Origin: Candidatus Forterrea multitransposorum CG_2015-17_Forterrea_25_41
GTDB taxonomy: Archaea; Iainarchaeota; Iainarchaeia; Iainarchaeales; CSSED10-239
Direction: 5' to 3'
Assembly (NCBI GenBank): GCA_009392915.1
Contig: CP045477.1
Location: 512,001 to 576,000, forward strand
Length of the DNA: 64,000 bases
In this document: piece after piece, positions 2,531 through 41,166 of the stretch
Position numbering within the stretch: position 1 is the first letter of the stretch
Layout: each line of letters opens with the position of its first letter
Made by a program: the position numbers and the translations under genes
The notes under the pieces: generated by a model
What the model saw: only the letters and a program-made list of their open reading frames with translations
Database searches by the model: none
Told to the model about the DNA's origin: nothing

Positions 2531-2553
2531 ATCAAACTAACCTCTTTTTTATT

Positions 2554-4561: not shown

Positions 4562-4667
4562 CTTCTATCAACTCATTTTACATATTTCTTAAGATATATG
4601 TATAAATATATAAAACAAAACATATTTATATTATTTTATATATAGATAATATTGGGTAGAATAACAT

Positions 4668-5150
4668 ATGAGTCTTTATAAAGAAAATAAATTTGATTTT
4701 TTAAAAAATAAATATATATGGATAGTTATAGGTGCTATACTTGTTTTAGCTATATTAGGTTATCTTTTAACAATGGTTAACTGGCAAGGAATGTTTGAAA
4801 AAGATAACATAAAAGTTAAATTTCAAAATAATCCTTTAGTTGTTTCAGAAAAAGACAATACTTTAATTGAGATAACTTTAATTAACAATACAGAAAAAGA
4901 TTTAGATAACTTAGAAGTAACTATTAAAGATGTTGAAAATAACTTTGAAATATTTTGTCCAGATTCACAAGAAGACAAAACAAAAGTTATAATTCCAAAA
5001 ATGGCAAGTGGTAATGAAAGAATAATAACTTGTAATGTAAGATATGACCCTACAAAAGATTTTTTTGAAGGAACATATAGTTTTGATATAGAATATTCAA
5101 TTGAAGATTATATTTATACGAAAAGAGCAGACTTAACAGTTGAAAGGTGA
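4668..5150 (+). CDS. hypothetical membrane-anchored extracytoplasmic protein
   Basis: 160 aa, N-terminal TM helix then Cys-containing domain. Confidence 0.5.
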   Translation: MSLYKENKFDFLKNKYIWIVIGAILVLAILGYLLTMVNWQGMFEKDNIKVKFQNNPLVVSEKDNTLIEITLINNTEKDLDNLEVTIKDVENNFEIFCPDSQEDKTKVIIPKMASGNERIITCNVRYDPTKDFFEGTYSFDIEYSIEDYIYTKRADLTVER

Positions 5151-5157
5151 AAGATAA

Positions 5158-5901: not shown

Positions 5902-6279
5902 ATGGTTTATTAATATGATTTTTAAAAAAATTTTTAAAAGAAATAATAAACCAAAAATTAATTTTGCAAGCTATCCTAAAAAAAAGTTAATAAAAAGTAT
6001 ATTGATTCCTTTTGGGAAAAATACTTTGATGGAACTTTAAAAAGATCTATCAATAAAAGAATAGATAATAATACAATATCTAGTTATAATCCTAATGTTA
6101 AAATATTCCCTCTTTCTCCTACAGTTGCTGTTACTATTAGAAAAATTCATAATGGAAAAAGATATCTTGAATTAAATGAATATTTTAAAAATAAACTTAA
6201 GAATAAAAAACTAAAATATTCAGAAATTGTAATTTCAGATATTATTGATTATAAAATAAAAGGAAGAGATTACTTTTTA

Positions 6280-6597
6280 ATGGAAAGAATAATTCCAGGA
6301 GCATCTGTAGCAGATGTATTAAATTATAAACTGTATAATAGAACAGCATTCTTAAATAGATTTAATGATTCATTTTTAAAAATAGTTCAGAAAATGGAAA
6401 AAAAAACTTTAGATAAAATGTATATTAATTTAGAAAAAGCAGTAAAAGAACTAAAAATAACTATTAGGAAAAATGAAAAAGAACATAAAATAGATAATTC
6501 TAAAGGAAATATTATAATTATAGACTATAATCCAAATAATGGAAAATTTAAACTAGGATTAATTGACCTTGATAGCTATTTTACATTTAGTTTTTAA
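6280..6597 (+). CDS. hypothetical protein with kinase-like hinge/catalytic-loop motifs; reading frame is open upstream to 5980 with no ATG, likely joined to 5915-6037 ORF across an A8 tract
   Basis: ERIIPGASVADV, IIIDYNPNNGKFKLGLIDLD resemble atypical protein kinase (Bud32/RIO-like) motifs; upstream frame analysis done by hand. Confidence 0.35.
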   Translation: MERIIPGASVADVLNYKLYNRTAFLNRFNDSFLKIVQKMEKKTLDKMYINLEKAVKELKITIRKNEKEHKIDNSKGNIIIIDYNPNNGKFKLGLIDLDSYFTFSF

Positions 6598-6660
6598 ACA
6601 TATTATAAAAAAAAGAGCGATGCCTATATTTTACTAATTCTTTTAAAAAAAAAGTTAAAA

Positions 6661-6678
6661 AAGTAGGAAATAATGCCT
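6661..6678. repeat. 3' half of 23S rRNA processing stem (inverted repeat partner at 9749-9766)
   Basis: aagtaggaaataatgcct is the exact reverse complement of aggcattatttcctactt at 9749-9766; flanks the 23S gene as archaeal bulge-helix-bulge processing stems do. Confidence 0.7.
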
Positions 6679-6721
6679 TTTTATAGCAAAGAGCAAGATG
6701 TTTTATTTAGTTAAAAAAAAT

Positions 6722-9700: not shown

Positions 9701-9748
9701 TTAAGAATCATTTTTTTTTAACCAAATAAACTTGCTTTTGTTATTATT

Positions 9749-9766
9749 AGGCATTATTTCCTACTT
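9749..9766. repeat. 5' half of 23S rRNA processing stem
   Basis: Perfect 18-bp inverted repeat with 6661-6678; imperfect extension about 12 bp further. Confidence 0.7.
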
Positions 9767-10068
9767 CTTTCATTCCGTAAAATTTGTTAAGTATTAAACG
9801 GTCTAACTCACTAAGAAAAAACTCCTAGTGGGTAATATAATCTTTAGAAGAGCAAAGCTTTTAAAGGTATTGTTTTTTTCCTAAGTGATTTTTTAAAATT
9901 AAAAAAAAGAAGGTTAAATTAAACTTTATTTAGAGTAAAAAACAATTAAAATTACTTAATTTTAGTTTGAACGGTTTTAAAAGGTTTTTTAATACAACTT
10001 AACTTATAAAAACACTTAGATGAATTTTTTAAAAAATTAAGATTTTAAAAAAATATTAATACATAAAA

Positions 10069-10437
10069 TTATTTTGCAGAAACTAATTCACATTTTGTAG
10101 AAATTACTACTTGATGAGAGATATTTTTTTCAATATAACTTTTACATTGGTTTTTAGGATTATTATCAACAATACTTATTTTTGGTTGATTAACCACATC
10201 ACAAGCCCAACCTTTAACAATTTCTTCTGAAAGACAAGGTCCTTCTGTTAAAATTATTCCTTTAGTGTTTGCCTGAAGACATTCTTGAATACAATTATCT
10301 ATTGCAAGATCTTTATTTTCCATAAAAGAAGAGGGTTTATTAAAAATAACATTTAAAACACCAGCTACAAGTATTAATAAAAAAACTATAATATACACTG
10401 AAAATGGAATCTTTGCTTTTAGAAAATTAATTTTCAA
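10069..10437 (-). CDS. hypothetical Cys-rich membrane-anchored protein
   Basis: 122 aa, N-terminal TM, 8 Cys in ectodomain. Confidence 0.45.
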   Translation of the reverse strand: MKINFLKAKIPFSVYIIVFLLILVAGVLNVIFNKPSSFMENKDLAIDNCIQECLQANTKGIILTEGPCLSEEIVKGWACDVVNQPKISIVDNNPKNQCKSYIEKNISHQVVISTKCELVSAK

Positions 10438-28526: not shown

Positions 28527-28622
28527 TTTATTAATTTCTAAAAAAGATTATGTTTTTAAAGTTATAGTATATATATTATTTATATATAGTCTATTTTTTT
28601 AAAAACTAGATTAACATATAAA

Positions 28623-28695
28623 GCCTCTATAGCTCAGTGGCTAGAGCGGCAGTCTTGTAAACTGTAGGTCGAGGGTTCAAATCCCTCTAGAGGCT
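28623..28695 (+). tRNA. tRNA-Thr (anticodon TGT)
   Basis: Manual cloverleaf: acceptor gcctcta/tagaggc, D arm gctc/gagc, anticodon stem gcagt/actgt, loop ctTGTaa, T arm gaggg-ttcaaat-ccctc, discriminator T. Confidence 0.9.
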
Positions 28696-28705
28696 TCTTT
28701 TTATT
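28692..28705. repeat. target-site duplication, left copy (ggcttctttttatt), overlapping last 4 nt of tRNA-Thr
   Basis: Perfect 14-bp direct repeat with 37074-37087, immediately outside the TIRs. Confidence 0.65.
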
Positions 28706-28769
28706 GGGTTATAGCTATTTCACTTTTTTTGTACGCTTTTTAATCTTTTCTACACTAATAAATATTTAT
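28706..28769. repeat. casposon left terminal inverted repeat
   Basis: gggttatagctatttcactttttttgtacgc vs reverse complement of right end gggttatatatatctaattatttttgtacgt: 26/33 identical, further similarity ctaata-aatatttat with indels. Confidence 0.6.
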
Positions 28770-29487
28770 GGATAATAAGTATTTAAAATATATAAATAAT
28801 TTTGTTGAAACTGATTTTAAAATTCCAAATGAATTTAAAAATAAAAATATGTTTGGATCACTAAAAAACTTTCATAAGGGATTAGATCCAGAAACTATAT
28901 TACGAGGACTAATTCAATTAATACCTGCAGGTGGATTGATCGAAAAATATTTGTTTGCTAATAAAGATAAAAATGAAATAAAAAAAATTTATTATTTTTT
29001 GTATTGTTATTATATACAAATAAATAAAATAATTGAGGATAATAAAAATAAAATTGATCAAAAATATTTAAAAACAGAACAATTTTATAATTTATTTAAA
29101 CAATGTATTGAAAAAATAAGATTTGAAACTGAAATTAGTAAAATTCAATTATTTAAGAATTTTCTAATTAATGCAAGTATTTTAAATAATAAAAATATAG
29201 ATAAAGAATATATTTTATCAAAATTAGATAATATTTCTTTAAATCATTTTGAAATAATAGACTGGTATTATAAATATAACTACATTATAATTACAGGGAT
29301 TGGTTCCGAATACGATCAAAATAAAAAAAAAATTAAATTAAAATATTCTTATTTTGATTCTTATGAAAATGATTTAGCAACAATTGGTTTTTTAAATAAA
29401 ATTAATGGATTAGGAAGTGTTGAACGATATTATTTAACAAAATTAGGACTTGATTTTTATAATTTTATAAAATATGATGATTTGTAA
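28768..29487 (+). CDS. hypothetical protein (casposon cargo)
   Basis: 239 aa ORF starting inside the left TIR. Confidence 0.45.
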   Translation: MDNKYLKYINNFVETDFKIPNEFKNKNMFGSLKNFHKGLDPETILRGLIQLIPAGGLIEKYLFANKDKNEIKKIYYFLYCYYIQINKIIEDNKNKIDQKYLKTEQFYNLFKQCIEKIRFETEISKIQLFKNFLINASILNNKNIDKEYILSKLDNISLNHFEIIDWYYKYNYIIITGIGSEYDQNKKKIKLKYSYFDSYENDLATIGFLNKINGLGSVERYYLTKLGLDFYNFIKYDDL

Positions 29488-29527
29488 AAATAATATCTAT
29501 GATTTTCATAAATTATTGTTTTAATTT

Positions 29528-29986
29528 TTAATAGTCTGGATTATACTTTTTAATTAATTTAGATTTTATTAATTCAATTATAAATAAAGCAATAAAAAAA
29601 TAAATTATTAATTCTATAGTAAAACTATCTCGTAAATTTATGTCGTTAAAATTGGCAAGTATTTTTGATATTAATTGTATTGATGGAATAATAAATAAAG
29701 AAAATACAATTGTAATAAATAGATTTTTATTTTTTGAACTTATAAAGCTAATATTTTTTAGCGAAAATGTTTTATATATTCTTTTAAATAAAAAAACTAG
29801 TATGCAAAGATACATAATAAAAATAATAATAATAGCAATAACTTCTTTAAATTCTGGAAATAAAACCGGAAACTTTTCATTTAAAATTATATGAATCATT
29901 GCTAAATAATATAATCCAAAATAAGATAATAAAATAATAGGTTCAAAAAAATTCTTTTTAAATTTGATTAAATTTTCTAATTTCAC
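29528..29986 (-). CDS. hypothetical membrane protein (casposon cargo)
   Basis: 152 aa, 4 hydrophobic helices. Confidence 0.4.
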   Translation of the reverse strand: MKLENLIKFKKNFFEPIILLSYFGLYYLAMIHIILNEKFPVLFPEFKEVIAIIIIFIMYLCILVFLFKRIYKTFSLKNISFISSKNKNLFITIVFSLFIIPSIQLISKILANFNDINLRDSFTIELIIYFFIALFIIELIKSKLIKKYNPDY

Positions 29987-29990
29987 ATTT

Positions 29991-31172
29991 TCACCAATTA
30001 TTCACAATTTCTTCAATATTTTTATTCATACTAAAAGGTTTATTTACTCTTGCATTCTTTTTAAGATAAAATAATGTGCCTTTTGATAAACCTTTATTCT
30101 TCCAATCAACATAAGATATATTTAATATCTTATTTCTAATTTCTTCTGTATCTTTCCTTTCTAGTTTATGTTTAGGTTTTGTAAAATCTATGTTTTTCGA
30201 TTTTTTCTTTAAAAAGTTAGATAGTTCTCTTGTTTTTAATAATATTAAATAATGAAAGTTTACTTTATCTCCTTTATATAATATCTTATGATTAAAATGT
30301 TTATTAATACTTTCTAAAACCTTTTTAGCTCCAGAAGATCTTAACCTTAAATTATAGTTTTCTGTTCTTATAAAATCCTTATCATTAATCAAATTATTCT
30401 CAATTAAATCTAAAACTGCAAGATCAACTAAATATCTAAATGGTTCTTGCATATCATAAGCTAAACTATTCTTACCATTTTGCTTTTCATGTAAAAAACC
30501 TATGTGTCTATCAAGACCAATAGAATTTATTGATTTTAAAATCTCTGCTTCTAATATAGCATATCCATAATTAAGCATACAATTAAATTGATCTCCAGTA
30601 CCTTTAGCTTCTTTCTTATATTCTCTACCTTCAAATTCATATTTTTTAGGTATAATCTTAATAAATTGTTTCCAATAATGAGAAGCAATTCTACCTTCTG
30701 ATAATAAAATATCTTGAATTGTATTTGATTTCTTAAATAATTCTAGCTCTTTACTAAAATTATTATCAATTACTGAATATCTTTCTTTTAGATAATCTAA
30801 AACTAGTTGTTGTTTTTCAAATTTAGCTTCAACAAACTTTTTAGCTAAATTTAATCTTTGAATTGAATAATCATAAGCTTTATATTGTTCAAACTTAGCT
30901 TCTGAACCTATATTCTTATATGGTAACATACTAGTAAGTAGTTGTCCATCCCAATTTAGAAAGCTAACTTGAACATAGTGTTTCATTAACCATCTAATAG
31001 CATCTAAAGTTAATTCTCCCGACCTACCATATATTACTATATGATCAATATTCATTTTTCTTGGAGAGTATACTAATGTTTCATTAACTAAATCAGTTTG
31101 ATGTTTAATTATTAGTTTTGCTTTATCTACTCTTAGGTTAATTCCATAACCATCTAATAACAATATTTTCAT
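29991..31172 (-). CDS. cas1: Cas1 family integrase (casposase) with about 85-aa C-terminal extension
   Basis: 393 aa; Cas1 catalytic core LLSEGRIASHYW (Glu), NCMLNYGYAILEAEIL, GLDRHIGFLH (His), SLAYDMQEPFRYLVDLAVLDLI (acidic); no adjacent cas2. Confidence 0.85.
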   Translation of the reverse strand: MKILLLDGYGINLRVDKAKLIIKHQTDLVNETLVYSPRKMNIDHIVIYGRSGELTLDAIRWLMKHYVQVSFLNWDGQLLTSMLPYKNIGSEAKFEQYKAYDYSIQRLNLAKKFVEAKFEKQQLVLDYLKERYSVIDNNFSKELELFKKSNTIQDILLSEGRIASHYWKQFIKIIPKKYEFEGREYKKEAKGTGDQFNCMLNYGYAILEAEILKSINSIGLDRHIGFLHEKQNGKNSLAYDMQEPFRYLVDLAVLDLIENNLINDKDFIRTENYNLRLRSSGAKKVLESINKHFNHKILYKGDKVNFHYLILLKTRELSNFLKKKSKNIDFTKPKHKLERKDTEEIRNKILNISYVDWKNKGLSKGTLFYLKKNARVNKPFSMNKNIEEIVNNW

Positions 31173-32002
31173 AAAATCTCACTTTCGGATTTTTTAATAT
31201 TTAATAATTTATTAACATTGTATCTTATTTGTAGAATTAAATCAGTTTGTCTTGTTAAACCATTAAAATTAAATTTTTGTTGTAATTTATATAAGTCTTC
31301 TCTATGATTATGTATGTAATTAGTGATATATTTAACAGAATATGTATGTTTAACATAATCTTCATTTTCATTTATTAAATCATCTTCCAATTGTATTAAT
31401 ACTTGTTTATCATCATAATGTGCTAATAAATAAAGTATCCATCTTTTTAGATTTGAAAATTCACTATCATATTTATTATATTTTTCCAGTAATTTTTTTA
31501 ATATAGTTCTAAATTCAGTTTGATTTATAACTTCTATATTATTTTCTAAAATTAATTGAACTAGTGTGTAACCAACAGAATTAATTAATTCTTTATCATT
31601 TATATTTAATTTAAGTATATTAATAAGATCATCAACGTTTTTAGCATAAATTAAATCATCTCTATATAAACTAATATCTCTTAATATTAACATTTTATTT
31701 TTTTCCGATTTTTCTTTACTTAACTCCTCTAATCTATTATTAATATATTGAATAATTTCTTTATTTTGTTTTAATCCAATGTACACAATCCTATTATCTT
31801 TTTCTATAATATCATAAACAGAATATTCGTCTTTAGTAATTTTAATTAATTCTTTACTATCTATAAAATGTTGTATATGTCTAACTGCTGTTGGTTTACT
31901 ACATTTATAATTATCCATTATAAAATTAATTAAATCAGTTTTAGGAACGAAAATTTTATCTCTTATAAATTTACTTATTTTAGGAATATCAATTTTAACC
32001 AT
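31169..32002 (-). CDS. hypothetical protein with N-terminal winged-HTH-like region, co-transcribed with cas1
   Basis: 277 aa; stop overlaps cas1 start; FIMDNYKCSKPTAVRHIQHFIDSKELIKI resembles wHTH. Confidence 0.5.
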   Translation of the reverse strand: MVKIDIPKISKFIRDKIFVPKTDLINFIMDNYKCSKPTAVRHIQHFIDSKELIKITKDEYSVYDIIEKDNRIVYIGLKQNKEIIQYINNRLEELSKEKSEKNKMLILRDISLYRDDLIYAKNVDDLINILKLNINDKELINSVGYTLVQLILENNIEVINQTEFRTILKKLLEKYNKYDSEFSNLKRWILYLLAHYDDKQVLIQLEDDLINENEDYVKHTYSVKYITNYIHNHREDLYKLQQKFNFNGLTRQTDLILQIRYNVNKLLNIKKSESEIL

Positions 32003-32066
32003 AAAAAAACCTTATCAAATTATGTATCAACTTATAAATATTATATATTACAATAAGTTTAAATAC

Positions 32067-32110
32067 ATATCATTTTAGATATCAAAATGGATATTAAATA
32101 TAAATATCAT
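32067..32110. promoter_or_regulatory. candidate operator: imperfect palindrome atatcattttaGATATCaaaatggatat plus third half-site atatcatt, in divergent promoter region of casposon
   Basis: Read directly; located between cas1 operon (leftward) and RHH-HNH-polB operon (rightward). Confidence 0.35.
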
Positions 32111-32153
32111 TCTTTTTCGTCATAAGTTATCTATTGACTTAAAAGGTGATGTT

Positions 32154-32294
32154 ATGTGTAGAGTTATATTTACTCTTCCCAAATATATAAAACAAAAATT
32201 AGAAAAAATAGCAAAAGAAAAAAATACAACACAATCTGAATTGATTAGAGCCTCTCTTTATTTGTATTTAGATAAGGAGAGTGATAATAAATGA
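32154..32294 (+). CDS. ribbon-helix-helix (CopG/Arc/MetJ-like) DNA-binding protein
   Basis: 46 aa MCRVIFTLPKYIKQKLEKIAKEKNTTQSELIRASLYLYL: beta-strand + two helices RHH pattern; stop overlaps next start (ATGA); below ORF-track size cutoff. Confidence 0.6.
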   Translation: MCRVIFTLPKYIKQKLEKIAKEKNTTQSELIRASLYLYLDKESDNK

Positions 32295-32923
32295 TATTCT
32301 CAAAAGCACATAAAACATATACTAGTTGGTTAAAATCAGCTAGTAAAACAAGATATACATTTAAAATCATTAGAAAACATTCAATATTTCCTAACTATAA
32401 CTTAAAACAATTAAGAAATACTAAACTAAGTGGTTATTTTCTTAATAAAACAAATTGGAATAATTTAACTAATATTCAAAAAGCTAATAGAAAACAAGTA
32501 ACAAACGCACTTAGACAAATAAGAAAGGGCTATTCATTAAAAGATGTTGTTAAAATTAATGGAATTAACAAAGAAACAATACAAAAACACTTAGGAAATT
32601 ATCTATTCAAAAGAAAAGGCAAATGGCAAGTAAGAAAAACAGATAGATTACAACTAAAACTAATGATTTTTGAAAAAAGAATGTGTGCAAGAACAATAAT
32701 TACTACAAATTCTAAAGATAGACAATTAATTGGTAAATATTTTGCTAATGTTAAACTAGCTCTTAGAGAAAATAACCCTTATTATCTAAAACAATTCAAA
32801 AATAAGAAAATAATTGATGCTTATGGAAAAGCACATCATTTTGAAACAGATTTAGATAGATTAAAAATGTGTGAAGAAGCTATAGAAGAGCCAGAATATT
32901 TGGAAATATATAGAAATAGATGA
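32291..32923 (+). CDS. hypothetical basic protein (casposon)
   Basis: 210 aa ORF in operon between RHH and HNH. Confidence 0.45.
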   Translation: MIFSKAHKTYTSWLKSASKTRYTFKIIRKHSIFPNYNLKQLRNTKLSGYFLNKTNWNNLTNIQKANRKQVTNALRQIRKGYSLKDVVKINGINKETIQKHLGNYLFKRKGKWQVRKTDRLQLKLMIFEKRMCARTIITTNSKDRQLIGKYFANVKLALRENNPYYLKQFKNKKIIDAYGKAHHFETDLDRLKMCEEAIEEPEYLEIYRNR

Positions 32924-32927
32924 TATT

Positions 32928-33248
32928 ATGACTGAACAAATAGGCAGTGGTCTTTCTTGTTATCTTTGTGGAGAAGACCATCCAGCAGTAATTAAGAAAT
33001 TAGAATTACATCATATTGATGGTAAAGCTAATTCAAATACCACTGTTGCTATTTGTCAAAATTGTCATAATAAAATTACTTGTGAACAAAATAAACTATC
33101 TCCTAAATTGAGATCTAATAAAAATAAAGATTCTTTGATCAAGTTAGGTTATCAATTATTAAGTCACGGGGCTTTATTGAAGACTTTAGGAGAAACACAA
33201 ATAAAAATTGGAAAAGAGATGATTGAATATGAAAAAAATAATACTTAG
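32928..33248 (+). CDS. HNH endonuclease
   Basis: CYLCGEDH...LELHHIDGKANSNTTVAICQNCHNKIT: C-x2-C, HH, N, C-x2-C-H HNH signature; 106 aa. Confidence 0.7.
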   Translation: MTEQIGSGLSCYLCGEDHPAVIKKLELHHIDGKANSNTTVAICQNCHNKITCEQNKLSPKLRSNKNKDSLIKLGYQLLSHGALLKTLGETQIKIGKEMIEYEKNNT

Positions 33249-34791
33249 AGCATTTGCTAATGTTAATACAAATAAGAAAGACTATACTACAGAAATTAAA
33301 AAACATAGAAGAGTTTTAGTATTTGATACTGAAACAACTACTGATGAATATCAAAACCTTAAGATAGGGTTCTTTCAGGTTTATCAAGATAATATTAAGG
33401 TAAATGAAGGTTTATTCTATATAAATGACTTACCTAATGAAGATATTAAGGTTCTACAAAAATATTCTAGAACCTACCCTACCTCACTATATACCTTAGA
33501 TAAATTTAAAGATATATTCTATAAAGAAGTGTATAATAGAGGTACGTTATGTATTGGTTATAATCTAGCTTTTGATATATCTAGAATAGCTCAAAAATAT
33601 GGATATTCTAGAAAATATAATAAGGGTGGGTTTACATTTACTTTATCTAAGGATATAAACAAACCTCCTATAATTATTAAAAAATTAGGTGATGCTAATA
33701 CTTTTAAATTTCAAAGAAATATTGCTAATAAAGGTAAATCTTACAAAAGTGGTTATTTTTTAGATGTTCAAACAATATCTAAAATAATATTAGATAAGAG
33801 AAGGATTAGTTTAGATAAATCCTGTGAAATATTAAATACAACAACTAAAAAAATGAAAAATATCACACATGGAAAAATAACTAAACTTTATATTGATTAT
33901 TTAATTACTGATGTGAAGTCTACATTTGAAGTATATTTAGAATTATTAAAAGAATTTAAAAAATATGATATTGATATTCCATTAGAAAAAACATATAGTT
34001 CAGCATCTCTAGGTAAACAAGCATTAGCTCAATTAGGAATAAAATCTTTTTTTAATTGTAATCCGAATTTTAGTAAAGAATTAATCGGAATTATAATGTC
34101 TACTTATTATGGTGGAAGATGTGAATGTGTTTATAGAAAAAAACCAGTTAAAATTGATTATCTTGATTTTACTTCAATGTATCCTACTATTACCTTATTA
34201 TATGGTATTTGGGACTTTATAATTGCAGAACAAATAACTACTGAAGATGTTACTGATGAAATAAAAAATTTAGTTGAGAATATAGATTTAGAAAGTTTAA
34301 AAAATAAAGAATTATTTAGACAATTTAATGTACTTGTGAAAATTAAACCAAACAAAGATTTATTGCCAATTAGATTTGATTATAAAAACAAAAATGAAAA
34401 TAATAACTTAGGATTAAATTATCTTACAAGTGATAAAGAATTATGGTATACTTTACCGGATATAATTTCATCAAAAATACTAACTGGAAAAGCACCTCAA
34501 ATACTTGAAGCTATTAGATTTAAACCCAATGGAATACAAAGTGATCTTAAAAAATCTAAAATTGTTGGAGTAAATATAAACCCTAAGAAAGAAAATTTAA
34601 TTAAAATTTGTGTAGATAAAAGACAAGAAATTAAAAAAGAGATAAAAGAGTTAAAAAAAGATGATTTAGAATCTAAAAGACTTGATGGTATTCAGAGAGC
34701 CCTTAAAATTTTAGTTAATACTTTTAGTTATGGTATATTTATTGAATTAAATCCTAAAGAGGTAAAAAATAACATTAAATTTATGGTTTAA
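33223..34791 (+). CDS. polB: family B DNA polymerase (protein-primed type), N-terminal part: 3'-5' exonuclease + Pol motifs A and B; interrupted by frameshift
   Basis: ExoI VLVFDTETT, ExoII GYNLAFDISRI, ExoIII YIDYLITD, motif A IDYLDFTSMYPTI, motif B KILVNTFSYGIF. Confidence 0.8.
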   Translation: MNMKKIILRAFANVNTNKKDYTTEIKKHRRVLVFDTETTTDEYQNLKIGFFQVYQDNIKVNEGLFYINDLPNEDIKVLQKYSRTYPTSLYTLDKFKDIFYKEVYNRGTLCIGYNLAFDISRIAQKYGYSRKYNKGGFTFTLSKDINKPPIIIKKLGDANTFKFQRNIANKGKSYKSGYFLDVQTISKIILDKRRISLDKSCEILNTTTKKMKNITHGKITKLYIDYLITDVKSTFEVYLELLKEFKKYDIDIPLEKTYSSASLGKQALAQLGIKSFFNCNPNFSKELIGIIMSTYYGGRCECVYRKKPVKIDYLDFTSMYPTITLLYGIWDFIIAEQITTEDVTDEIKNLVENIDLESLKNKELFRQFNVLVKIKPNKDLLPIRFDYKNKNENNNLGLNYLTSDKELWYTLPDIISSKILTGKAPQILEAIRFKPNGIQSDLKKSKIVGVNINPKKENLIKICVDKRQEIKKEIKELKKDDLESKRLDGIQRALKILVNTFSYGIFIELNPKEVKNNIKFMV

Positions 34792-35804
34792 ATGAATTTT
34801 CTTCTGATGTAAAACATATAGAAAATATTGGTAAATATTTCAATCCTATATTAGGCACGATAATAACCTCAGGAGCAAGATTATTTTTAGCTATAGCTCA
34901 ATCAATTACAGAAAAACAAGGGTATAAGCACGTTTATATGGATACAGACAGTATTTTAGTTCCTATTGAGGTATCTAGTAAGGTAATAAATTATTTTAAA
35001 CCTTTAAATCCTTATTCTTCAGATATAGCTTTACTTAAAAAAGAGAAAGAAGATGTATGTTTCTATGGTATTTGTAGTAAAAGATATTGTTTATATAATT
35101 TTAAAAATAAAAAAATTGAACTTATGGATTATAAATTACATGGTTTAGGGCATCTTATTAATCCTTGGAGTAATAAAAAGGATTGGCATAAGGATGTTTG
35201 GTTAGATATATTGAATTTACATTATAATTATATTACATCAGCAGAAATTTATGAAAAATATTCTGTAGTTTATGGAATATCTAGATTTACAGTATCTACT
35301 CCACATTTAATTAAGAGATTTAATACAATTAATAATGATAGACCTTATGAAGAACAAATTAAACCATCTAATTTTTTTTATTTAGGGTTTTCTGTAAATA
35401 AGAATAATTCTGTAAAACCATTAGTGCCTTTTGGAGGAAATCCTCAAAAGTTGGTTTATGATGAATTTATTGATTATAATACTGGAAAGGTAATGCAAGG
35501 TTGTGAGTATTGGAAACCTTTAGGAAATACAATCTTAGAGTATATTGATCATTCAGAGTATAAGTTAGATGGGGGTATTGGGCAATTAGAAAGAAAACAT
35601 ATTGTTTGTAATGATATTCAGTATATAGGAAAAGAAGCAAACAATATTGATGAAGAAGCTATATCTTCTTTTAAACCTATTGAGTATAAGAACAATAATC
35701 AGTTTAAGAAGGATCTTAGGTCATTGAATAATAAGGAGTTGATGCAAAAGTACCATTTCAAGACTAGGAGTCACATCAAGTATTGGAGAGATAAATTATT
35801 CTAA
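34779..35804 (+). CDS. polB: family B DNA polymerase, C-terminal part in -1 frame (KxY-region ITSGAR, motif C YMDTDS, thumb)
   Basis: Hand translation of frame upstream of 34938 gives IYGLNEFSSDVKHIENIGKYFNPILGTIITSGARLFLAIAQ...KHVYMDTDSILVP, continuous with PolB after motif B. Confidence 0.75.
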   Translation: MYGLNEFSSDVKHIENIGKYFNPILGTIITSGARLFLAIAQSITEKQGYKHVYMDTDSILVPIEVSSKVINYFKPLNPYSSDIALLKKEKEDVCFYGICSKRYCLYNFKNKKIELMDYKLHGLGHLINPWSNKKDWHKDVWLDILNLHYNYITSAEIYEKYSVVYGISRFTVSTPHLIKRFNTINNDRPYEEQIKPSNFFYLGFSVNKNNSVKPLVPFGGNPQKLVYDEFIDYNTGKVMQGCEYWKPLGNTILEYIDHSEYKLDGGIGQLERKHIVCNDIQYIGKEANNIDEEAISSFKPIEYKNNNQFKKDLRSLNNKELMQKYHFKTRSHIKYWRDKLF

Positions 35805-37013
35805 CGATTCATATTCATAGCAATGTTTTTTTTTAGTATTTTTAATAACTAATCTTTTATCCATATCTTTATAAACTTCAGGAGGCATAAAAGTATTTTT
35901 ACCAAAAGTTACAAAATTATATTTAGTCATATCCTTAATATCTGTTTTTAAAACACCTATAATAAATGATAATTTTTGTTTAGTTTTATAATATAAAGTC
36001 CAACAAGTAAATTTATTTTTAATTAAAATATCATCTTTTTTACCATTTGAAAAAGCGCAATAAATACCAAAATCAAAATTATCCCAACCTAAAAATCTTT
36101 GGACATAATTTTTATTAGATTTTTTAAATTCAATGTATTTCTTAAATATTTCAATACCAAAATTACATTTTTGAAATGAATTTAATTTTAAAATTTGTTC
36201 AATAAATAAATAATCATCTTGCGATTCACACTTTTCTAATTGAAATATTAAGTCATCTATAAATACACTATATTTTTCATTATTCTTTTTAATATCTAGT
36301 TGATTTTTTAAAAACTCTTTATAATTAAATTCATCAAATAATATTAAACTCGCATCAACCCACTTTTTTGTAAGTTCAGCAATACCGTCTTTATTTTGTA
36401 AGTAAATACCTAATATATTTCTTTCTGAATCTAATAAATTATTTTTATTTATGATTAGTTCTCTTTTATCTAAATAATCTATGAAGTCAACAGGTGTGTG
36501 TATATAATTTATAATTTCATTTATTTCTGTATAATTAAAAATATGTGGCATTATTTTAATATTTGATGATTCTTTTTGTGTAATTGATAACAATCCTTTA
36601 TTTGCTAATTCATAATTTCCATTATTAATAACAACACCATAGATTTTCTTAATTTTTTTAAAATTACTATTTGTTAATTTTATATTTTCATTAAATTTAT
36701 TTTTAATATTCACATGAATTTTATTTTCTTTGATTCTATTTATACTTGCACGTAATTGTTTTGTTGGATTGTATATAGCTTTTTGTATATATCTTTTATC
36801 GATAATATCATGTATTTTTGTTTTTATTTGAATAATTATAGCAACATCATTTAATAAAATAATGAAATCGCATAACTCTTTATTATTTTCTAATTGTGGA
36901 TTTGGAAAAACAAAATATTTATGAAAAATAGGTTGTAAAATATTATTATATATTTTTTCTTCAAAAGAATCTTTAAAGTTATAATTATTATTCATAAATA
37001 AATAATATTGCAA
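35796..37013 (-). CDS. hypothetical protein with possible N-terminal PD-(D/E)xK nuclease-like motif (casposon, adjacent to right TIR)
   Basis: 405 aa; ELCDFIILLNDVAIIIQIKTK resembles D-x(n)-E-x-K core; tentative. Confidence 0.4.
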   Translation of the reverse strand: MQYYLFMNNNYNFKDSFEEKIYNNILQPIFHKYFVFPNPQLENNKELCDFIILLNDVAIIIQIKTKIHDIIDKRYIQKAIYNPTKQLRASINRIKENKIHVNIKNKFNENIKLTNSNFKKIKKIYGVVINNGNYELANKGLLSITQKESSNIKIMPHIFNYTEINEIINYIHTPVDFIDYLDKRELIINKNNLLDSERNILGIYLQNKDGIAELTKKWVDASLILFDEFNYKEFLKNQLDIKKNNEKYSVFIDDLIFQLEKCESQDDYLFIEQILKLNSFQKCNFGIEIFKKYIEFKKSNKNYVQRFLGWDNFDFGIYCAFSNGKKDDILIKNKFTCWTLYYKTKQKLSFIIGVLKTDIKDMTKYNFVTFGKNTFMPPEVYKDMDKRLVIKNTKKKHCYEYESLE

Positions 37014-37016
37014 AAT

Positions 37017-37073
37017 ATGTATAAATATTACTATTAGAACAAACGTACAAAAATAATTAGATATATATAACCC
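37017..37073. repeat. casposon right terminal inverted repeat
   Basis: See left TIR alignment. Confidence 0.6.
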
Positions 37074-37087
37074 GGCTTCTTTTTATT
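37074..37087. repeat. target-site duplication, right copy (ggcttctttttatt)
   Basis: Perfect 14-bp direct repeat of 28692-28705. Confidence 0.65.
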
Positions 37088-37126
37088 ATTTTATTTTCAC
37101 TCTTTGAAAGTTTTTTATTCTTTTCT

Positions 37127-37423
37127 ATGAATAAAGATTACAACAATTACATTATTTCAGTAATAGGAGGATTAACAACTGGTTTTATAATTATTATAAT
37201 TCCAGAATTATTAAAAGTTATATTTGATAAAAATATAAAACTATTTATTAAAATTATTTTTCTAATTGGGATGATATTATTTTTAATATGGAGTTTATTG
37301 TTTGTAGGAAATAAATTCTTTTTAAAACAAAAAAAACGTACTAAAGAATTAAACAAATTAATAATAACAAGTATTATATTTATTCTTATTAATATTATAT
37401 TAGAGTGCTTAATAAATCTGTAA
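37127..37423 (+). CDS. hypothetical small membrane protein
   Basis: 98 aa, 3 hydrophobic helices. Confidence 0.35.
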   Translation: MNKDYNNYIISVIGGLTTGFIIIIIPELLKVIFDKNIKLFIKIIFLIGMILFLIWSLLFVGNKFFLKQKKRTKELNKLIITSIIFILINIILECLINL

Positions 37424-37508
37424 TTATTATTTTTTTATTAAATTAACATAAATTATAAAAAAACATTTTTATTTAAAAAAATAATTTTTATATTTAATAA
37501 AATAAAAA

Positions 37509-38387
37509 TTAATGATAATGCACAGATAACGTTAAAACTCCCGCTTCTTTATATTCACCACGATAATTTTTTACATGCCCATGATAATGATATTTAAAAT
37601 TACATTTCTTTTTTAAATCATATATATTAATTGATCCTAAATTGTAAAACGTAATACCAGGACAGTGAGATACAAAAATTGTTTTATTACTAAAATAAGT
37701 TCTAAAAAAATCAATTCGTTTTTTATCCATTCTCAAACTATTATCAATTGAAGAAATATATTTTTCTTTACCAGATTTATCAGAATTAACTCCTGTTAAA
37801 TATAAATCTTTATTTAAATATATTAGTTCTAAATCCATAGGATTATAAAAATTAGGGTTATTTATAATTTTATAAATTATTGGAATATTATTAAAATAAT
37901 TATTTAATTCCATTAAATCTCCATTAAAAAATGAACCCATAATATATTTTCTTTGAGGAAAAGCCAATATACTATCGTGATTTCCAGAATAAAATAATAT
38001 TCTTATGTCTTTTTTAACACAATAATTTTCAAAATCAATAAAATTATCAATCTCATTTTTATTTTTAGAATAAATTAATTCAGATAGTAAATTACCAAAA
38101 TCTTCTGAAGTAATATTAAGTAAATTATTTTTATTTTTGTTTAAATAATCATACACTTGAAATTCATTCCAATAAGATTTTAAAAAAGAAAAAATATCTC
38201 CTAAAAACACAACTAATTTAATTTTTTTAGCACATAAAATTTTAATTAACTTTTTTTTTATTATTAAAGAAAATCTTTCAATATCTGATATAAAATAAAT
38301 TTCATCTAATTCAATATCTTTATTAAATAAACGATGAAAATCAAATTTTATATTAATTAAATTAGGCACTATTTTTTTATCCTTCAA
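37509..38387 (-). CDS. calcineurin-like metallophosphoesterase
   Basis: FLGDIFS (GD motif), SGNHDS (GNHD), VSHCPG, YHGHVKN (GHxH-like); 292 aa. Confidence 0.55.
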   Translation of the reverse strand: MKDKKIVPNLINIKFDFHRLFNKDIELDEIYFISDIERFSLIIKKKLIKILCAKKIKLVVFLGDIFSFLKSYWNEFQVYDYLNKNKNNLLNITSEDFGNLLSELIYSKNKNEIDNFIDFENYCVKKDIRILFYSGNHDSILAFPQRKYIMGSFFNGDLMELNNYFNNIPIIYKIINNPNFYNPMDLELIYLNKDLYLTGVNSDKSGKEKYISSIDNSLRMDKKRIDFFRTYFSNKTIFVSHCPGITFYNLGSINIYDLKKKCNFKYHYHGHVKNYRGEYKEAGVLTLSVHYH

Positions 38388-38438
38388 TATTTATCTCCCC
38401 TATATACTTATTCACATTAAACAATATATTCAAAAATA

Positions 38439-39047
38439 TTATTTATAAAGTTTTATTCCTTCCAAAAGATCTATTCCAATAGATTTTTTTACTGCAATTT
38501 CCCTTATATATGAAACTATAGATTTATCTAAACAATCCCAATATCCAAATTTATCTATTAAATAAGCAATTAATTGAAAATACATATATTCAAATCTATA
38601 ATCTTCCTCATAATATAATGGGAAATGAATAAAATTATTTCTTTGATTTCCAATTAAATTAAATAAACTTTCGATTAATTCTTTATTTGAATCTTTATTA
38701 TTAATAATATATGAAAATAACTTAAATTTTAATTTACCTAAAGTTCTATTTTTAATTGGTATTTGTAAATAATTTATTGGATCTTTATCAATTAATATTA
38801 TTTTAACTAATCCTTCAACACAAATATTTAACAAAATAATATGAGAAATTTCCTCTGTAGTAGAATCTTCTTTTAATTTTTTATAATTATTTAACAAAAA
38901 TTTAAATTGCTTAAATAAATTAGCTATAAATTTTTGTTTTTTTTCATCTACATCAACTTTATCTAATAATTTACATTCCATAATTAAAGAGAGTTTTTGT
39001 AACTCTTTTAAACGATTATTTAATTCTTTAACCATAATTTCACACAT
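38439..39047 (-). CDS. hypothetical protein
   Basis: 202 aa ORF in very AT-rich island. Confidence 0.4.
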   Translation of the reverse strand: MCEIMVKELNNRLKELQKLSLIMECKLLDKVDVDEKKQKFIANLFKQFKFLLNNYKKLKEDSTTEEISHIILLNICVEGLVKIILIDKDPINYLQIPIKNRTLGKLKFKLFSYIINNKDSNKELIESLFNLIGNQRNNFIHFPLYYEEDYRFEYMYFQLIAYLIDKFGYWDCLDKSIVSYIREIAVKKSIGIDLLEGIKLYK

Positions 39048-39065
39048 TTATTTTATAAATTTAAT

Positions 39066-39935
39066 TTATTTAATTAAATCAGATATTTTAACACTTAACA
39101 CATAACCAATTCTTGAAAGGTCTTTTGTTTCAATATTAATTACTCTTAAATTATTGTTTTCTAAAATCTTATTTTTATTTGCATATCTTTTTATTTCTTT
39201 ATTTCTTTTTTCTTCATTTAATGAATTTAATCCTCCATTAAATTCAATATAAATATCTTCTTTAGGTAAATAAAAATCAATTAATCTATATTCTGCTTTA
39301 TCACCTTTTAAAAAATCAACATAATATTCAGGAATATACCTAATTTTTAATTCTTGCAGAGAAAGTGCAACTAATTTTTCTCCTTCACTCCTAGTTTTCA
39401 AATAATTTTCTTTATTAATAGTTTTTAATTTTTTTTTATTAATATCTAATAACCAATTTACATACCATTGATAGGTATCCCATTGATCCCATTTTTCTCC
39501 TGCATAAAAATGTTTAGATTCATTATCTTTTCTATAATAAAATCTTCTCCAATCATGAGGAGTAGTTTTTATAATAAATGTAGTTTGTTTATCTTTTTTA
39601 ATATAAACATCCTCTTTATTAACTACTAAATGTTTCATATGATTAGGAAACATTTTTTCAGAACCTGGTTTTTCAATATTTGGATCATATCCACAAGCTA
39701 AATGAAAATGAATAGTAACTTTATTTATTTTTATATTTGCACAAAATTTTTTATCATCAATAATTACACAGTATGGTTCTGAAGGAAACCAATCTTTAAC
39801 CATATCTTGAAAAATTTCGGATGCTTTAGAATATTGACAATCTTTCTTAAATTTATCATATTTTTTTTTATCATACCTAGCATTAATTAATCTTTCTGAA
39901 TTTGTTAATTTGTAATCCTTTAATAAATAACTCAT
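39066..39935 (-). CDS. protein with C-terminal DUF559/Vsr-like (PD-(D/E)xK) endonuclease domain
   Basis: SEGEKLVALSLQ...YRLIDFYLPKEDIYIEFNGG matches the DUF559/very-short-patch-repair-like endonuclease core pattern. Confidence 0.5.
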   Translation of the reverse strand: MSYLLKDYKLTNSERLINARYDKKKYDKFKKDCQYSKASEIFQDMVKDWFPSEPYCVIIDDKKFCANIKINKVTIHFHLACGYDPNIEKPGSEKMFPNHMKHLVVNKEDVYIKKDKQTTFIIKTTPHDWRRFYYRKDNESKHFYAGEKWDQWDTYQWYVNWLLDINKKKLKTINKENYLKTRSEGEKLVALSLQELKIRYIPEYYVDFLKGDKAEYRLIDFYLPKEDIYIEFNGGLNSLNEEKRNKEIKRYANKNKILENNNLRVINIETKDLSRIGYVLSVKISDLIK

Positions 39936-39945
39936 AATAACCCTC

Positions 39946-40515
39946 TTATCTTTTTTTAAAATTTCTTTTTCTTGAATGATTAAATTTAGAATTCTTATTA
40001 AAGCGACTAGATAAATTAGAAGGCTGTCTTTTAAAAGATCTAAATTTATTTACTTTTCTCTTTAAATAATGTGTAATTGTATAATATTTAATAAAATTTA
40101 AAATAATTATTGCAATTAAAATATAAATTAATAATTCTAAAATTAAAGAAAATAATGAAAAATCACTTAAATTAAGTATTATTTTTACAAATAAACCAAT
40201 AATAGGAATTAATAATAAACTAATATAAATTTCAATTAAAAAAAATCTATTTTTCGAATCTAATAAATACAGTCCACGTAACAGATTTTTGATAAAACTA
40301 ATAATTGTTTTAATAATTACAATAAATATAACTATTAAAGAAATAGAAAAATAAATTGTTTTTTTTATTTCACTAAGATTTGAAGATTTTATTAAAATAT
40401 TAATTAAAATAAAAAAAATCAATGTTGAGCAATAATATAAAAGGTTATTTTTATTTTCATTCCAAAAACGATGCCAAATATCTTTATGTAAAAAACTTTT
40501 ATGTTTTTTAATCAT
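39946..40515 (-). CDS. hypothetical membrane protein with highly basic C-terminal tail
   Basis: 189 aa; 4 TM; tail KRKVNKFRSFKRQPSNLSSRFNKNSKFNHSRKRNFKKR. Confidence 0.4.
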   Translation of the reverse strand: MIKKHKSFLHKDIWHRFWNENKNNLLYYCSTLIFFILINILIKSSNLSEIKKTIYFSISLIVIFIVIIKTIISFIKNLLRGLYLLDSKNRFFLIEIYISLLLIPIIGLFVKIILNLSDFSLFSLILELLIYILIAIIILNFIKYYTITHYLKRKVNKFRSFKRQPSNLSSRFNKNSKFNHSRKRNFKKR

Positions 40516-40793
40516 ATATATTAAATTAATCCATTTATTTATAAATCTATTTAATTATATAAATTATTAAAATTAATATAAAATTTATTAATTAATTTAA
40601 TTTTATTTATAAGCTAATATATATTTCGAAAATCAGTATAATATTTATAAAAATACTACAAAAACTATATATTCTATAATAAATAACATTAAATCTCTTT
40701 TTAGGTATTAATAAAAATAAGAAAATAAATTATTTTTTTAAAGAAGGAATAATTTATTTTTCAAATTATTTATTTACATTTAGTATGTTTATT

Positions 40794-40964
40794 TTATTTT
40801 TTATGAGAAAATAAACCCCAAACTAAAAATATTACAAACAATACTACAAATATATAGAATAACACTAATGCAATGTTAGTTGCAACATCTGAAATTCTTC
40901 CAAAACCAAAAATTGCAGAAATTATTGCTATTACTAAAAATATAATTGCCCATCTAAGAAACAT
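40794..40964 (-). CDS. UPF0391/DUF1328 family small membrane protein
   Basis: 56 aa MFLRWAIIFLVIAIISAIFGFGRISDVATNIALVLFYIFVVLFVIFLVWGLFSHKK, hand-translated; matches DUF1328 consensus (M..RWAIIFL..ALIA..FGFGGIAG); below ORF-track cutoff. Confidence 0.55.
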   Translation of the reverse strand: MFLRWAIIFLVIAIISAIFGFGRISDVATNIALVLFYIFVVLFVIFLVWGLFSHKK

Positions 40965-41166
40965 ATAACATCACCTTCATATATTATAGTTGAAATATCT
41001 TATAAAGAGGTGTAATTAGCAGTTATACCTTAAATTACTAATATAAATGAATTAATAAATATAATTACTGAACATTTATTTATAAAAAACCTCTAAATAA
41101 AAATGTTTTGTTACTTAAATATATTATAACTAATTTTTTAAAAAAATAATTAATAAAGAAACACAT

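Follow-up and report, generated by a model that had tools for sequence, protein, structure and literature searches.

The tRNA-Thr element and its boundaries

Directly downstream of a tRNA-Thr(TGT) gene, the 64-kb stretch of archaeal DNA analyzed here (the whole of which is referred to below as the window; 24% GC, in host DNA of 22 to 24% GC) contains an element of 8,368 bp (~8.4 kb), spanning positions 28706 to 37073, that encodes a Cas1 homologue, a family B DNA polymerase (PolB), a putative HNH-type endonuclease, and several further proteins (Table 1). It is enclosed by two perfectly matching copies (14/14) of a 14-bp direct repeat, GGCTTCTTTTTATT, which has no other copy in the window, and both copies are abutted on the inside by terminal inverted repeats (TIRs) that match at 28 of 36 positions (26 of 33 over the span considered in a preliminary description of this locus) and whose similarity reaches ~55 to 60 nucleotides (nt) in a gapped local alignment of the element ends, near the ~55 nt given there. 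That description placed the tRNA gene, the direct repeats, the TIRs, and cas1 at coordinates that all hold. It also proposed a casposon that pairs a Cas1 casposase with a PolB and is delimited by TIRs and by a duplication of the target site (TSD) 14 bp in length, a proposal supported by the match of the Cas1 protein to a characterized casposase, by the synteny of the core genes, by the termini, and by the polymorphism of the insertion between strains. We consider it very likely that positions 28706 to 37073 represent a family 2 casposon that sits right behind tRNA-Thr(TGT) on the AT-rich chromosome of a DPANN archaeon.

Table 1. Features of the element and of its insertion site, in window positions (aa, amino acids; HTH, helix-turn-helix)
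Feature	Position	Strand	Basis or remark
tRNA-Thr(TGT), integration target	28622-28697 (ARAGORN); 28623-28695 (Rfam)	+	RF00005, 75.5 bits
T-loop motif TCAAATC	28677-28683	+	Read from the sequence; -15 to -9 from the TSD start
Direct repeat (TSD), left copy	28692-28705		GGCTTCTTTTTATT
Left TIR	28706-28741	+	GGGTTATAGCTATTTCACTTTTTTTGTACGCTTTTT; inverted-repeat detection; bipartite motif present
orf239, cargo, no predicted function	28768-29487	+	No Pfam, NCBIfam, or PADLOC match
orf152, cargo, hydrophobic, ~4 predicted membrane spans (by eye)	29528-29986	-	No family match
cas1, casposase, 393 aa, C-terminal HTH, intact	29991-31172	-	Pfam PF01867, E value 2e-62
orf277, conserved gene upstream of cas1; putative winged-helix N-terminus and helical repeats	31169-32002	-	
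Ribbon-helix-helix protein (CopG-type), 46 aa	32154-32294	+	PF01402, E value 1.2e-4, 22.3 bits (cutoff 20.5)
orf210, conserved family 2 core gene, putative HTH protein	32291-32923	+	
HNH-type endonuclease, 106 aa (CxxC ... HH ... N ... CxxC H)	32928-33248	+	NCBI name: HNH endonuclease
polB, family B DNA polymerase, frameshifted	33223-35804	+	ORFs 33223-34791 and 34938-35804
orf405, cargo, putative NERD / PD-(D/E)xK-like nuclease fold (E46, D49, K64)	35796-37013	-	
Right TIR	37038-37073	-	Reverse complement, GGGTTATATATATCTAATTATTTTTGTACGTTTGTT
Direct repeat (TSD), right copy	37074-37087		GGCTTCTTTTTATT

By itself, the 14-bp repeat is no evidence for this interpretation, since such repeats are frequent at 24% GC, the window containing 212 maximal pairs of at least 14 bp at spacings of 3 to 25 kb. 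The conjunction of repeat and TIR is unique: among 1,617 pairs of exact repeats of at least 12 bp, this is the single pair accompanied by an immediately internal inverted repeat (score, 28/36; next best, 23), and 200,000 random pairs of positions gave inverted-match scores with a mean of 11.4, a standard deviation of 3.0, and a maximum of 25, so that the similarity exceeds what random AT-rich flanks would provide. Furthermore, each strand of the 64 kb has a single copy of GGGTTATA, the two copies lying precisely at the two termini, and a bipartite end motif, GGGWTATA-N14-TTTGTACG, was found twice in the window, at the element ends, and not once in 100 shuffles, a test that is not independent, the motif having been derived in part from the window. 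The conserved TIR blocks (positions 1 to 8 and 23 to 30) are intact at both ends. Since the GC content of the element (21.7%) equals that of the host and the element is embedded in a 664-kb contig, a binning artifact was excluded.

The product of cas1 aligned from residue 1 to residue 393 with the casposase of Methanosarcina mazei (PDB 6OPM, chain residues 18 to 414; E value, 8.7e-132; roughly 55% identity, judged by eye), while the best match to a CRISPR Cas1, 4N06, had an E value of 1.8e-37. Similarly, the protein passed the generic cas1 model only, all CRISPR-subtype NCBIfam models remaining far below their cutoffs (Cas1b model: 136 bits, with a cutoff of 304), and these searches point to a casposase and not to a CRISPR-subtype Cas1. 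The clear Cas1 catalytic core noted in the preliminary description was recovered both as the Pfam domain and as the residues E159, H228, and E243, which correspond to the catalytic E162, H232, and E247 of the M. mazei protein (PMC6977970) and are invariant in an alignment of 20 homologues. Integration in M. mazei needs the C-terminal 60 to 70 residues of the casposase (PMC6977970), and the corresponding HTH region is present here: the Pfam Cas1 domain stops at residue 290, and the alignment with 6OPM includes residues 330 to 393. Ratios of nonsynonymous to synonymous substitution rates (dN/dS) of 0.10 to 0.21 among three elements (that of the window and two relatives, L008 and L085, described below) indicate that the casposase is under purifying selection. 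On a rough neighbor-joining tree, built without reference sequences of CRISPR Cas1 or of families 1, 3, and 4, the window casposase formed a small clade with L008, P0003, P0004, and P0005, and this clade lay in a star-like radiation of interleaved DPANN and methanogen sequences, nested among homologues from family 2 host groups. The idea of a new casposon family, also raised in the preliminary description, is not supported, given this placement. In one JGI assembly (a contig of 623,806 bp), the Cas1 call (P0242) comprises 324 aa, 100% identical to residues 1 to 324 and without the HTH; this could be a truncating population variant or a gene-calling artifact.

Insertion geometry and sibling strains

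On the basis of the acceptor stem (GCCTCTA/TAGAGGC) and the discriminator T, the mature 3' end of tRNA-Thr lies at position 28695. The left TSD copy thus overlaps the last 4 nt of the tRNA (tRNA positions 70 to 73, window positions 28692 to 28695), and the tRNA is left intact. In M. mazei, likewise, the 14-bp TSD contains the last 4 bp of tRNA-Leu, and the elements end in ...TATATCCC-3' (PMC6977970); the ends of the window element read ...TATAACCC-3'. The M. mazei TSD starts with CGCA, which is contacted base-specifically by R191 and R192 (PMC6977970), residues that align with K187 and E188 of the window casposase, whose target begins with GGCT. Upstream of the TSD, the T-loop of tRNA-Thr contains TCAAATC at the distance (-15 to -9) at which the same heptamer was mapped by mutagenesis for the Aciduliprofundum boonei casposase (PMC6614799), and it is a probable recognition motif ("leader") here as well, by analogy with that system.

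This geometry recurs in other casposons, whose boundaries were accepted only where inverted repeats lay directly against a direct repeat. Eight such elements, from a Methanosarcinales metagenome-assembled genome (MAG) (L011; tRNA-Gln), Methanoculleus sediminis (L020; tRNA-Leu), Methanosarcina sp. DH2 (L029; no tRNA detected), "Ca. Iainarchaeum" (L036; complete genome CP064981; tRNA-Arg), an "archaeon" MAG (L043; tRNA-Gln), Woesearchaeota (L044 and L050; target tRNA not on the fetched stretch), and Nanoarchaeota (L049; tRNA-Ser), share a TSD length of 14 bp and termini that read GGG(A/T)(T)ATA. Wherever the bounded elements have a tRNA, it overlaps the TSD by 4 to 5 nt, and in seven bounded elements the TSD starts exactly 8 nt past TTCRAWTC. 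Targeting of a tRNA 3' end in the manner of family 2, as first proposed for this locus, is thus borne out by a geometry common to seven elements and M. mazei. L020, L029, L049, and casposons of Methanosarcinaceae also show the terminal sequence of the window element. Over its initial 14 nt, the left end of the window element is identical (14/14) to the TIR of L020, and loci of Methanosarcina, Methanolobus, and Methanococcoides likewise have GGGWTATA-N14-TTTGTACG at their casposon ends.

Two observations concern individual members of this set. In L011 (L011:2030-13188), the orientation relative to the target tRNA-Gln is reversed, with cas1 distal and codirectional, and cas1 is proximal to the tRNA and antisense to it in the window, L008, L085, L020, L036, L043, and L049; casposons therefore occur in either orientation. 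The Woesearchaeota contig L044 (L044:1-10300; 10,300 bp) consists almost entirely of one casposon (55 to 10246) with both 14-bp TSDs and ~40 nt on each side. Evidently its assembly broke off at both junctions, which would be anticipated for a sample containing occupied alongside empty alleles, or more than one copy.

The same tRNA-Thr gene is present in the sibling strains L002 to L005 and L008 to L010, and in L002, L005, and L008 the flanks are ~96% identical up to the tRNA. L002, L003, L004, L005, and L009 have no casposon after tRNA-Thr, and since strains with ~96% identical flanks lack the element, the insertion is young. In L008 and L010, the same nucleotide is occupied by a different casposon, the tRNA being followed by GGCTTATCTTTTTA and then by GGGTTATAGCTATTTCACTTTTTTTGTACGCTTTT. 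Its core is 72 to 78% identical to that of the window element at the nucleotide level, its Cas1 is 82% identical in amino acid sequence, the first 33 nt of its left end (in L008) are the same, and its cargo comprises a 191-aa ORF and a D12 methyltransferase gene. Moreover, exactly this 14-mer, GGCTTATCTTTTTA, comes after the tRNA in L002 and L009, where the site is empty (...GGCTTATCTTTTTA directly followed by TATAATATT...). In L008, this 14-bp target segment lies at the left junction, and the contig stops short of the right end; for the L008/L010 casposon, that end is predicted to read ...TATAACCC, then GGCTTATCTTTTTA, then TATAATATTTT.

L085 is a complete sister element of 8,400 bp, located at a different tRNA-Thr(TGT) and flanked by a perfect TSD of 14 bp, GGCTTTCTATTTTT. 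Its Cas1 is 89% identical to that of the window, its PolB (L085:5081-7669) is intact and 61% identical, and it carries an Eco47II-type restriction enzyme and a C5 methylase as cargo. Because L085, with its intact PolB, shows the same 28/36 TIR pattern, imperfect TIRs appear to be normal for this clade. Across the three elements, the insertion point is constant and the duplicated sequence varies (GGCTTCTTTTTATT, GGCTTATCTTTTTA, and GGCTTTCTATTTTT), just as a staggered cut of the transposase type predicts. Two more distant clade members, L087 and L088, lie on short contigs without a tRNA, L087 showing one end only, followed by GGCTT.... The permease gene flanking the window element has variants of at least 90% identity in other assemblies, and the proteins of the element form single-sequence clusters.

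On comparison, these elements appear mosaic, with 89% identity for Cas1 against 61% for PolB (L085) and 33 identical nt at the end against cores of 72 to 78% identity (L008), a sequence pattern that suggests modular recombination between cocirculating casposons. In addition, the right TSD of L085 is followed (L085:8526-8633) by GGGATATAGTTAAT..., a second terminus of the casposon type, of which the first 9 nt are identical to the end of L029 and which may belong to casposons arrayed in tandem, as has been described for M. mazei; the contig stops 95 nt later.

Beyond the right TSD, ~4 kb of strain-specific DNA unlike that of the siblings (37088 to 41080) separates the casposon from a ZIP transporter gene. 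It holds genes for a 98-aa membrane protein and a 292-aa metallophosphoesterase, three unassigned ORFs (202, 289, and 189 aa), and a DUF1328 gene; the siblings have a 117-aa ORF and a DUF3368 gene instead, with an extra 2',5'-RNA-ligase-like gene in L005. Given these differing contents, the interval from tRNA-Thr to Zip is a variable hot spot beyond the casposon itself.

The polB lesion and competing interpretations

The preliminary description correctly reported a family B polymerase beside cas1, in which we found motifs B and C, but overlooked that its gene is frameshifted. The second frame of polB is open from position 34779, which places a -1 frameshift within 11 nt (34779 to 34789), between motif B (KILVNTFSYG) and motif C (YMDTDS). 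With one T restored in a T-run, an 860-aa PolB results that is gapless at the junction (NNIKF/YGLNEF, compared with ...IYGLNEF...) and covers 92 to 100% of intact PolBs of 853 to 890 aa. The downstream fragment was found on 38 contigs and in four NCBI MAG records, and JGI calls the same split; because of this recurrence, the lesion must be real and not a one-off assembly error. No intact near-identical copy of polB was found in a collection of 5.8 billion proteins. Programmed -1 frameshifting was considered and rejected, there being no X_XXY_YYZ slippery heptamer in the frame of the first ORF within the 11-nt shift window. The window copy of the casposon is thus probably nonautonomous.

The preliminary description further took the polymerase to be of the protein-primed type, which we do not uphold: that type defines family 1, and the relatives of the window PolB are of the family 2 type. 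The reconstructed protein is 49 to 61% identical over its full length to PolBs of Methanosarcinales (~50%) and an Iainarchaeota MAG (60%), and 39 to 49% identical to the syntenic PolBs inside bounded casposons of the family 2 type. For P0122, a homologue with 61% identity, an AlphaFold2 (AF2) model (pLDDT, 86.5; pTM, 0.84) was compared with the PDB by Foldseek, and the top 50 matches were all RNA/DNA-primed PolBs (KOD, 9°N, Tgo, Pol alpha, and Pol zeta), at TM-scores of 0.34 to 0.47, low values such as are expected for a multidomain enzyme. The window PolB itself, fused or in pieces, matched no polymerase family in Pfam, and phmmer against the PDB returned only a 48-residue match to a Thermococcales PolB, so the classification relies on the homologues and on the model of P0122. 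Family 2 PolBs have been related to RNA-primed archaeal PolB3 (Krupovic et al. 2014, PMC4046053), and the A. boonei PolB has been assigned to a cluster of its own, with ties to the main PolB group as well as to the protein-primed one (Kazlauskas et al. 2020, PMC7544198). In summary, the window PolB appears to resemble the RNA/DNA-primed type, and the protein-primed type is not demonstrable. A hallmark of family 2 is an HTH common to the C termini of Cas1 and PolB (PMC4046053). Profile-profile comparison of the two C-terminal alignments (hhalign) detected it over 36 columns with a probability of 97.6% and an E value of 2.7e-12 (pairwise BLASTP, 0.54).

As a family 2 casposon, the element would be a self-synthesizing DNA transposon with a Cas1 homologue as its integrase. 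By analogy with the characterized systems, a casposase tetramer would bind the target through the T-loop heptamer TCAAATC, 9 to 15 bp upstream, and the first TSD bases, GGCT, after which the 3'-OH of the terminal C of ...TATAACCC-3' at each end would attack the two target strands 14 bp apart. Gap repair would then produce the 14-bp duplication, with the tRNA undamaged. Excision leaving a single clean target has been shown in vivo for the M. mazei casposon, and the same outcome would be expected here, PolB serving to copy the excised element. We propose that the window copy arrived recently and is probably unable to replicate on its own; it may still be excised, or mobilized in trans.

The alternative that deserves most weight is that of a casposon fossil, dead and inherited vertically, which owes its insertion to a casposase but is now an immobile genomic island. 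This overlaps with the family 2 casposon proposed here and differs from it only on whether excision or mobilization in trans can still take place. It is a real possibility, to which we give appreciably less than even weight. The split of polB, which separates motif B from motif C in each of the 38 contigs and the four MAG records, would fit it, as would the missing slippery heptamer, the TIRs matching at 28/36 only, the truncated Cas1 call in one assembly, and an identical Cas1 in one and the same context across 24 contigs examined (of 92 collection blocks listing this Cas1). The perfect TSD, the intact TIR blocks, and a full-length casposase that has kept its catalytic residues under purifying selection argue against it, as do the sister element L085, whose intact PolB is accompanied by the same TIR pattern, and the siblings that show the insertion to be young.

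A genomic island integrated by a tyrosine or serine recombinase, with the 14-bp repeat as an att core and with cas1 and polB as passengers, is very improbable. While tRNA 3' ends are classic att sites and the tRNA-Thr-to-Zip region varies between strains beyond the casposon, searches with Pfam, NCBIfam, and defense-system profiles yielded no match to integrase/recombinase (tyrosine or serine) or virion families in the ORFs of the element, nor to integrase/recombinase families in the ORFs adjoining it. Furthermore, the repeat is abutted by inverted repeats that have their termini in common with biochemically characterized casposon ends, a casposase footprint has just this 14-bp spacing and just this overlap of 4 nt with the tRNA, and the insertion point is the same although the duplicated sequence differs between elements, unlike the identity that att sites would impose. 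More improbable still, and close to excluded, is a CRISPR-Cas adaptation remnant (a stand-alone Cas1 with accidental flanking repeats in AT-rich sequence), which has in its favor the name "CRISPR-associated endonuclease Cas1" given to the protein by NCBI and JGI and the frequency of 14-bp direct repeats in the window, and against it the subtype scores, the casposase-specific C-terminal HTH, the singular conjunction of repeat and TIR, the polymorphism of the insertion between strains, the lack of any CRISPR-like array in the 64 kb (in agreement with the preliminary description), and the lack of a Cas2 match among the ORFs neighboring cas1, cas2 not having been searched in every window ORF. Chance repeats, a CRISPR remnant, and an integrase island were rejected on these grounds.

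Several points nevertheless count against the family 2 casposon reading, or parts of it. The exact empty site of the window insertion (...CCCTCTAGAGGCTTCTTTTTATTATTTTATTTTC...) was absent from JGI metagenome contigs, which were searched with a 28-nt junction and then with the tRNA end followed by N{0,30} and the right flank. Sibling DNA downstream of the tRNA differs, so the state of the window strain before insertion is not directly observed. For integration by the window casposase, natural insertion polymorphism serves as the only proxy, and the tree on which the placement of this protein is based has the restricted set of references given above. The HNH protein and the two "HTH" core proteins (orf210 and orf277) have weak or no profile support. 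Finally, polB is frameshifted in all assemblies, and since the TIRs mismatch at 8 of 36 positions, present-day activity is doubtful.

Gene content, host range, and relation to known casposons

The gene order PolB-HNH-orf210, followed by Cas1 (with orf277 before it in some elements), recurs in nine further casposons, either bounded or partial, whose sources are Methanosarcina, Methanoculleus, a Methanosarcinales MAG, Iainarchaeum, Woesearchaeota, and Nanoarchaeota. In all nine, orf210 has a tblastn match at the syntenic position (E values of 1e-23 to 1e-59), and the 106-aa HNH-type gene is kept between orf210 and polB. Profile matches of the HNH-type ORF are weak and confined to residues 10 to 51 (ZorE HNH, E value of 0.0014; PF01844, 0.52), and a match of orf210 to Pfam HTH_40 (0.002) is below threshold. 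Syntenic homologues of orf277 were found in three of the nine (L008, with 48% identity, L029, and L043), and its homologue in L085 gave a weak TPR-like match; a single-sequence AF2 model (overall pLDDT, 61) has a winged-HTH-like N terminus (pLDDT, 71 to 89), the remainder being modeled as low-confidence helices. Neither Pfam nor NCBIfam returned a confident HTH call for orf210, orf277, or their homologues in other casposons. One of the two HTH proteins described for family 2 has C-terminal helical (HEAT) repeats. The ribbon-helix-helix gene, already noted in the preliminary description and above threshold in Pfam, is also called by JGI and is also present in L085.

The three cargo genes, orf239, orf152, and orf405, have no counterparts in the nine compared casposons. 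A word-indexed search returned orf405 as a near-ORFan, and an exhaustive search found 178 distant relatives, a sparse family of ~400-aa proteins in which E46 and D49 are invariant, K64 is nearly so, and 2 of 30 members have a Pfam NERD match.

Elsewhere in the window, a complete archaeal 23S rRNA gene lies at 6722 to 9705, and since neither a 16S nor a 5S gene was detected in the 64 kb, the rRNA genes are unlinked, as first noted for the 23S gene in the preliminary description. An Rfam match to "Plastid-ycf2 5'UTR" (608 to 681, plus strand), exactly at threshold and antisense to a tRNA-Met(CAT), is almost certainly an artifact of a tRNA-like segment in the model. Long tandem repeats with periods of 165 and 330 nt, ~75 to 84% identical, were found at 19099 to 20303 inside an 864-aa ORF (18386 to 20980, minus strand); as the homologous ORF has 858 or 803 aa in siblings, it appears to encode a repeat-containing protein of variable length.

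With regard to the host, proteins at least 90% identical to those of this strain carry the NCBI label "Candidatus ainarchaeum sp." (the MAG itself being labeled "archaeon"), and the locus is also found in JGI metagenome 3300007985 (contig Ga0100381_1000002, 663,621 bp). Iainarchaeota belong to the kingdom Nanobdellati, i.e., DPANN, in line with the AT-rich and possibly DPANN-like host surmised at first. Hosts of family 2 have been described as Euryarchaeota (PMC4046053, PMC9939771), a descriptive and not a mechanistic trait, and one that the present element does not show. An alignment-based Cas1 query recovered 74 loci among GTDB species representatives (a single-Cas1 query of genome contigs gave none), at least 14 of which are labeled Woesearchaeota, Nanoarchaeota, Iainarchaeum, or unclassified "archaeon," and these loci are annotated merely as "CRISPR-associated endonuclease Cas1." Among viral contigs (IMG/VR), the single-Cas1 query found nothing and the alignment-based query almost no relatives. 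Full-text searches retrieved no literature joining casposons with DPANN, the two topics occurring separately, and an earlier mention is possible. An extension of the casposon host range to DPANN is thus supported relative to the searchable literature; the novelty of host range supposed in the preliminary description stands to that extent, but many such elements were already present, unannotated, in public DPANN genomes.

A more far-reaching reading, which we put forward only tentatively and which in our judgment falls somewhat short of an even chance, is that DPANN archaea are a substantial undescribed reservoir of active family 2 casposons exchanged with methanogens. It would accommodate the tRNA-Thr-specific clade (window, L008, and L085) with its recent, repeated, and competing insertions at one site, the apparent modular recombination, and the swapped defense-type cargo (restriction-modification systems, methyltransferases, and a NERD-like nuclease), as well as the interleaving of DPANN and Methanomicrobia casposases in the tree. 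The end sequence held in common with the Methanoculleus casposon (14/14) would fit transfer between episymbionts and hosts.

The CRISPR adaptation machinery is presumed to descend from casposons, and this locus and its relatives show casposon machinery at work in ultrasmall, AT-rich DPANN genomes. The empty sites, the two casposons at one nucleotide in strains that are ~96% identical, and the third, sister element amount to a natural experiment on target choice, in which the T-loop motif keeps a fixed distance, the target begins with GGCT and not CGCA, and the casposase has K187/E188 in place of R191/R192. This series of polymorphisms also bears on casposon turnover, on the exchange of cargo, and on possible transfer between symbiont and host.

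The traits given for family 2 are an HTH at the C terminus of the casposase and a similar one on PolB, core genes for Cas1, PolB, an HNH protein, and two HTH proteins, the presence of TIRs, a 14- to 15-bp TSD, and insertion over the last 4 to 7 nt of tRNA genes (PMC4046053, PMC9939771, PMC6614799). The window element has a non-CRISPR Cas1, the HTH on both casposase and PolB, a PolB of the corresponding type, TIRs, a TSD, and a tRNA target, and it displays neither the traits of family 1 (protein-primed PolB, no casposase HTH, and insertion at the aEF-2 3' end) nor those of a CRISPR adaptation module or of an integrase island or provirus. It is a well-supported, ordinary member of the known family 2 and leaves the concept of a casposon unchanged. 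In the literature examined, three casposases have been characterized biochemically, those of A. boonei, M. mazei, and Nitrosopumilus koreensis.

The CRISPR Cas1-Cas2 integrase is alike in its homologous integrase fold and catalytic triad and in an integration next to a leader that duplicates the target as a CRISPR repeat is duplicated. It differs in the length of the duplication (25 to 50 bp, compared with 14 bp here) and in what is integrated, a spacer as opposed to an 8.4-kb element, and the window element has the extra HTH, with neither a Cas2 in the neighboring ORFs nor an array anywhere in the window. Family 1 (Thaumarchaeota, NitAR1-C1) also combines a Cas1-type integrase with a PolB, TIRs, a TSD, and site-specific insertion beside a conserved gene, but has a protein-primed PolB, a casposase without HTH, and a target at the 3' end of aEF-2 (PMC4046053, PMC8464041). 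AciBoo-C1 of A. boonei, a family 2 member (Hickman & Dyda 2015; Beguin 2016, 2019), has in common with the window element insertion at a tRNA 3' end, a 14- to 15-bp TSD, an identical TCAAATC heptamer at the identical distance of 9 to 15 bp upstream of the insertion, and the C-terminal HTH of its casposase; it differs in its thermoacidophilic euryarchaeon host, in its target (tRNA-Pro and not tRNA-Thr), and in a TSD starting with CC and not GG. Finally, MetMaz-C1 of M. mazei and its relatives (Krupovic 2016, Hickman 2020, PMC10359463) have in common with the window element a full-length casposase with HTH and catalytic E/H/E, the PolB type, an HNH gene, a 14-bp TSD with the last 4 bp of a tRNA, and casposon 3' ends finishing ...TATA(T/A)CCC, and GGGWTATA-N14-TTTGTACG is likewise present in Methanosarcinaceae elements. 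They reside in methanogens, at tRNA-Leu, with CGCA at the start of the TSD and R191/R192 in the casposase, whereas the window element resides in a DPANN host of 22 to 24% GC, at tRNA-Thr, with GGCT and K187/E188, other cargo, and a frameshifted polB.

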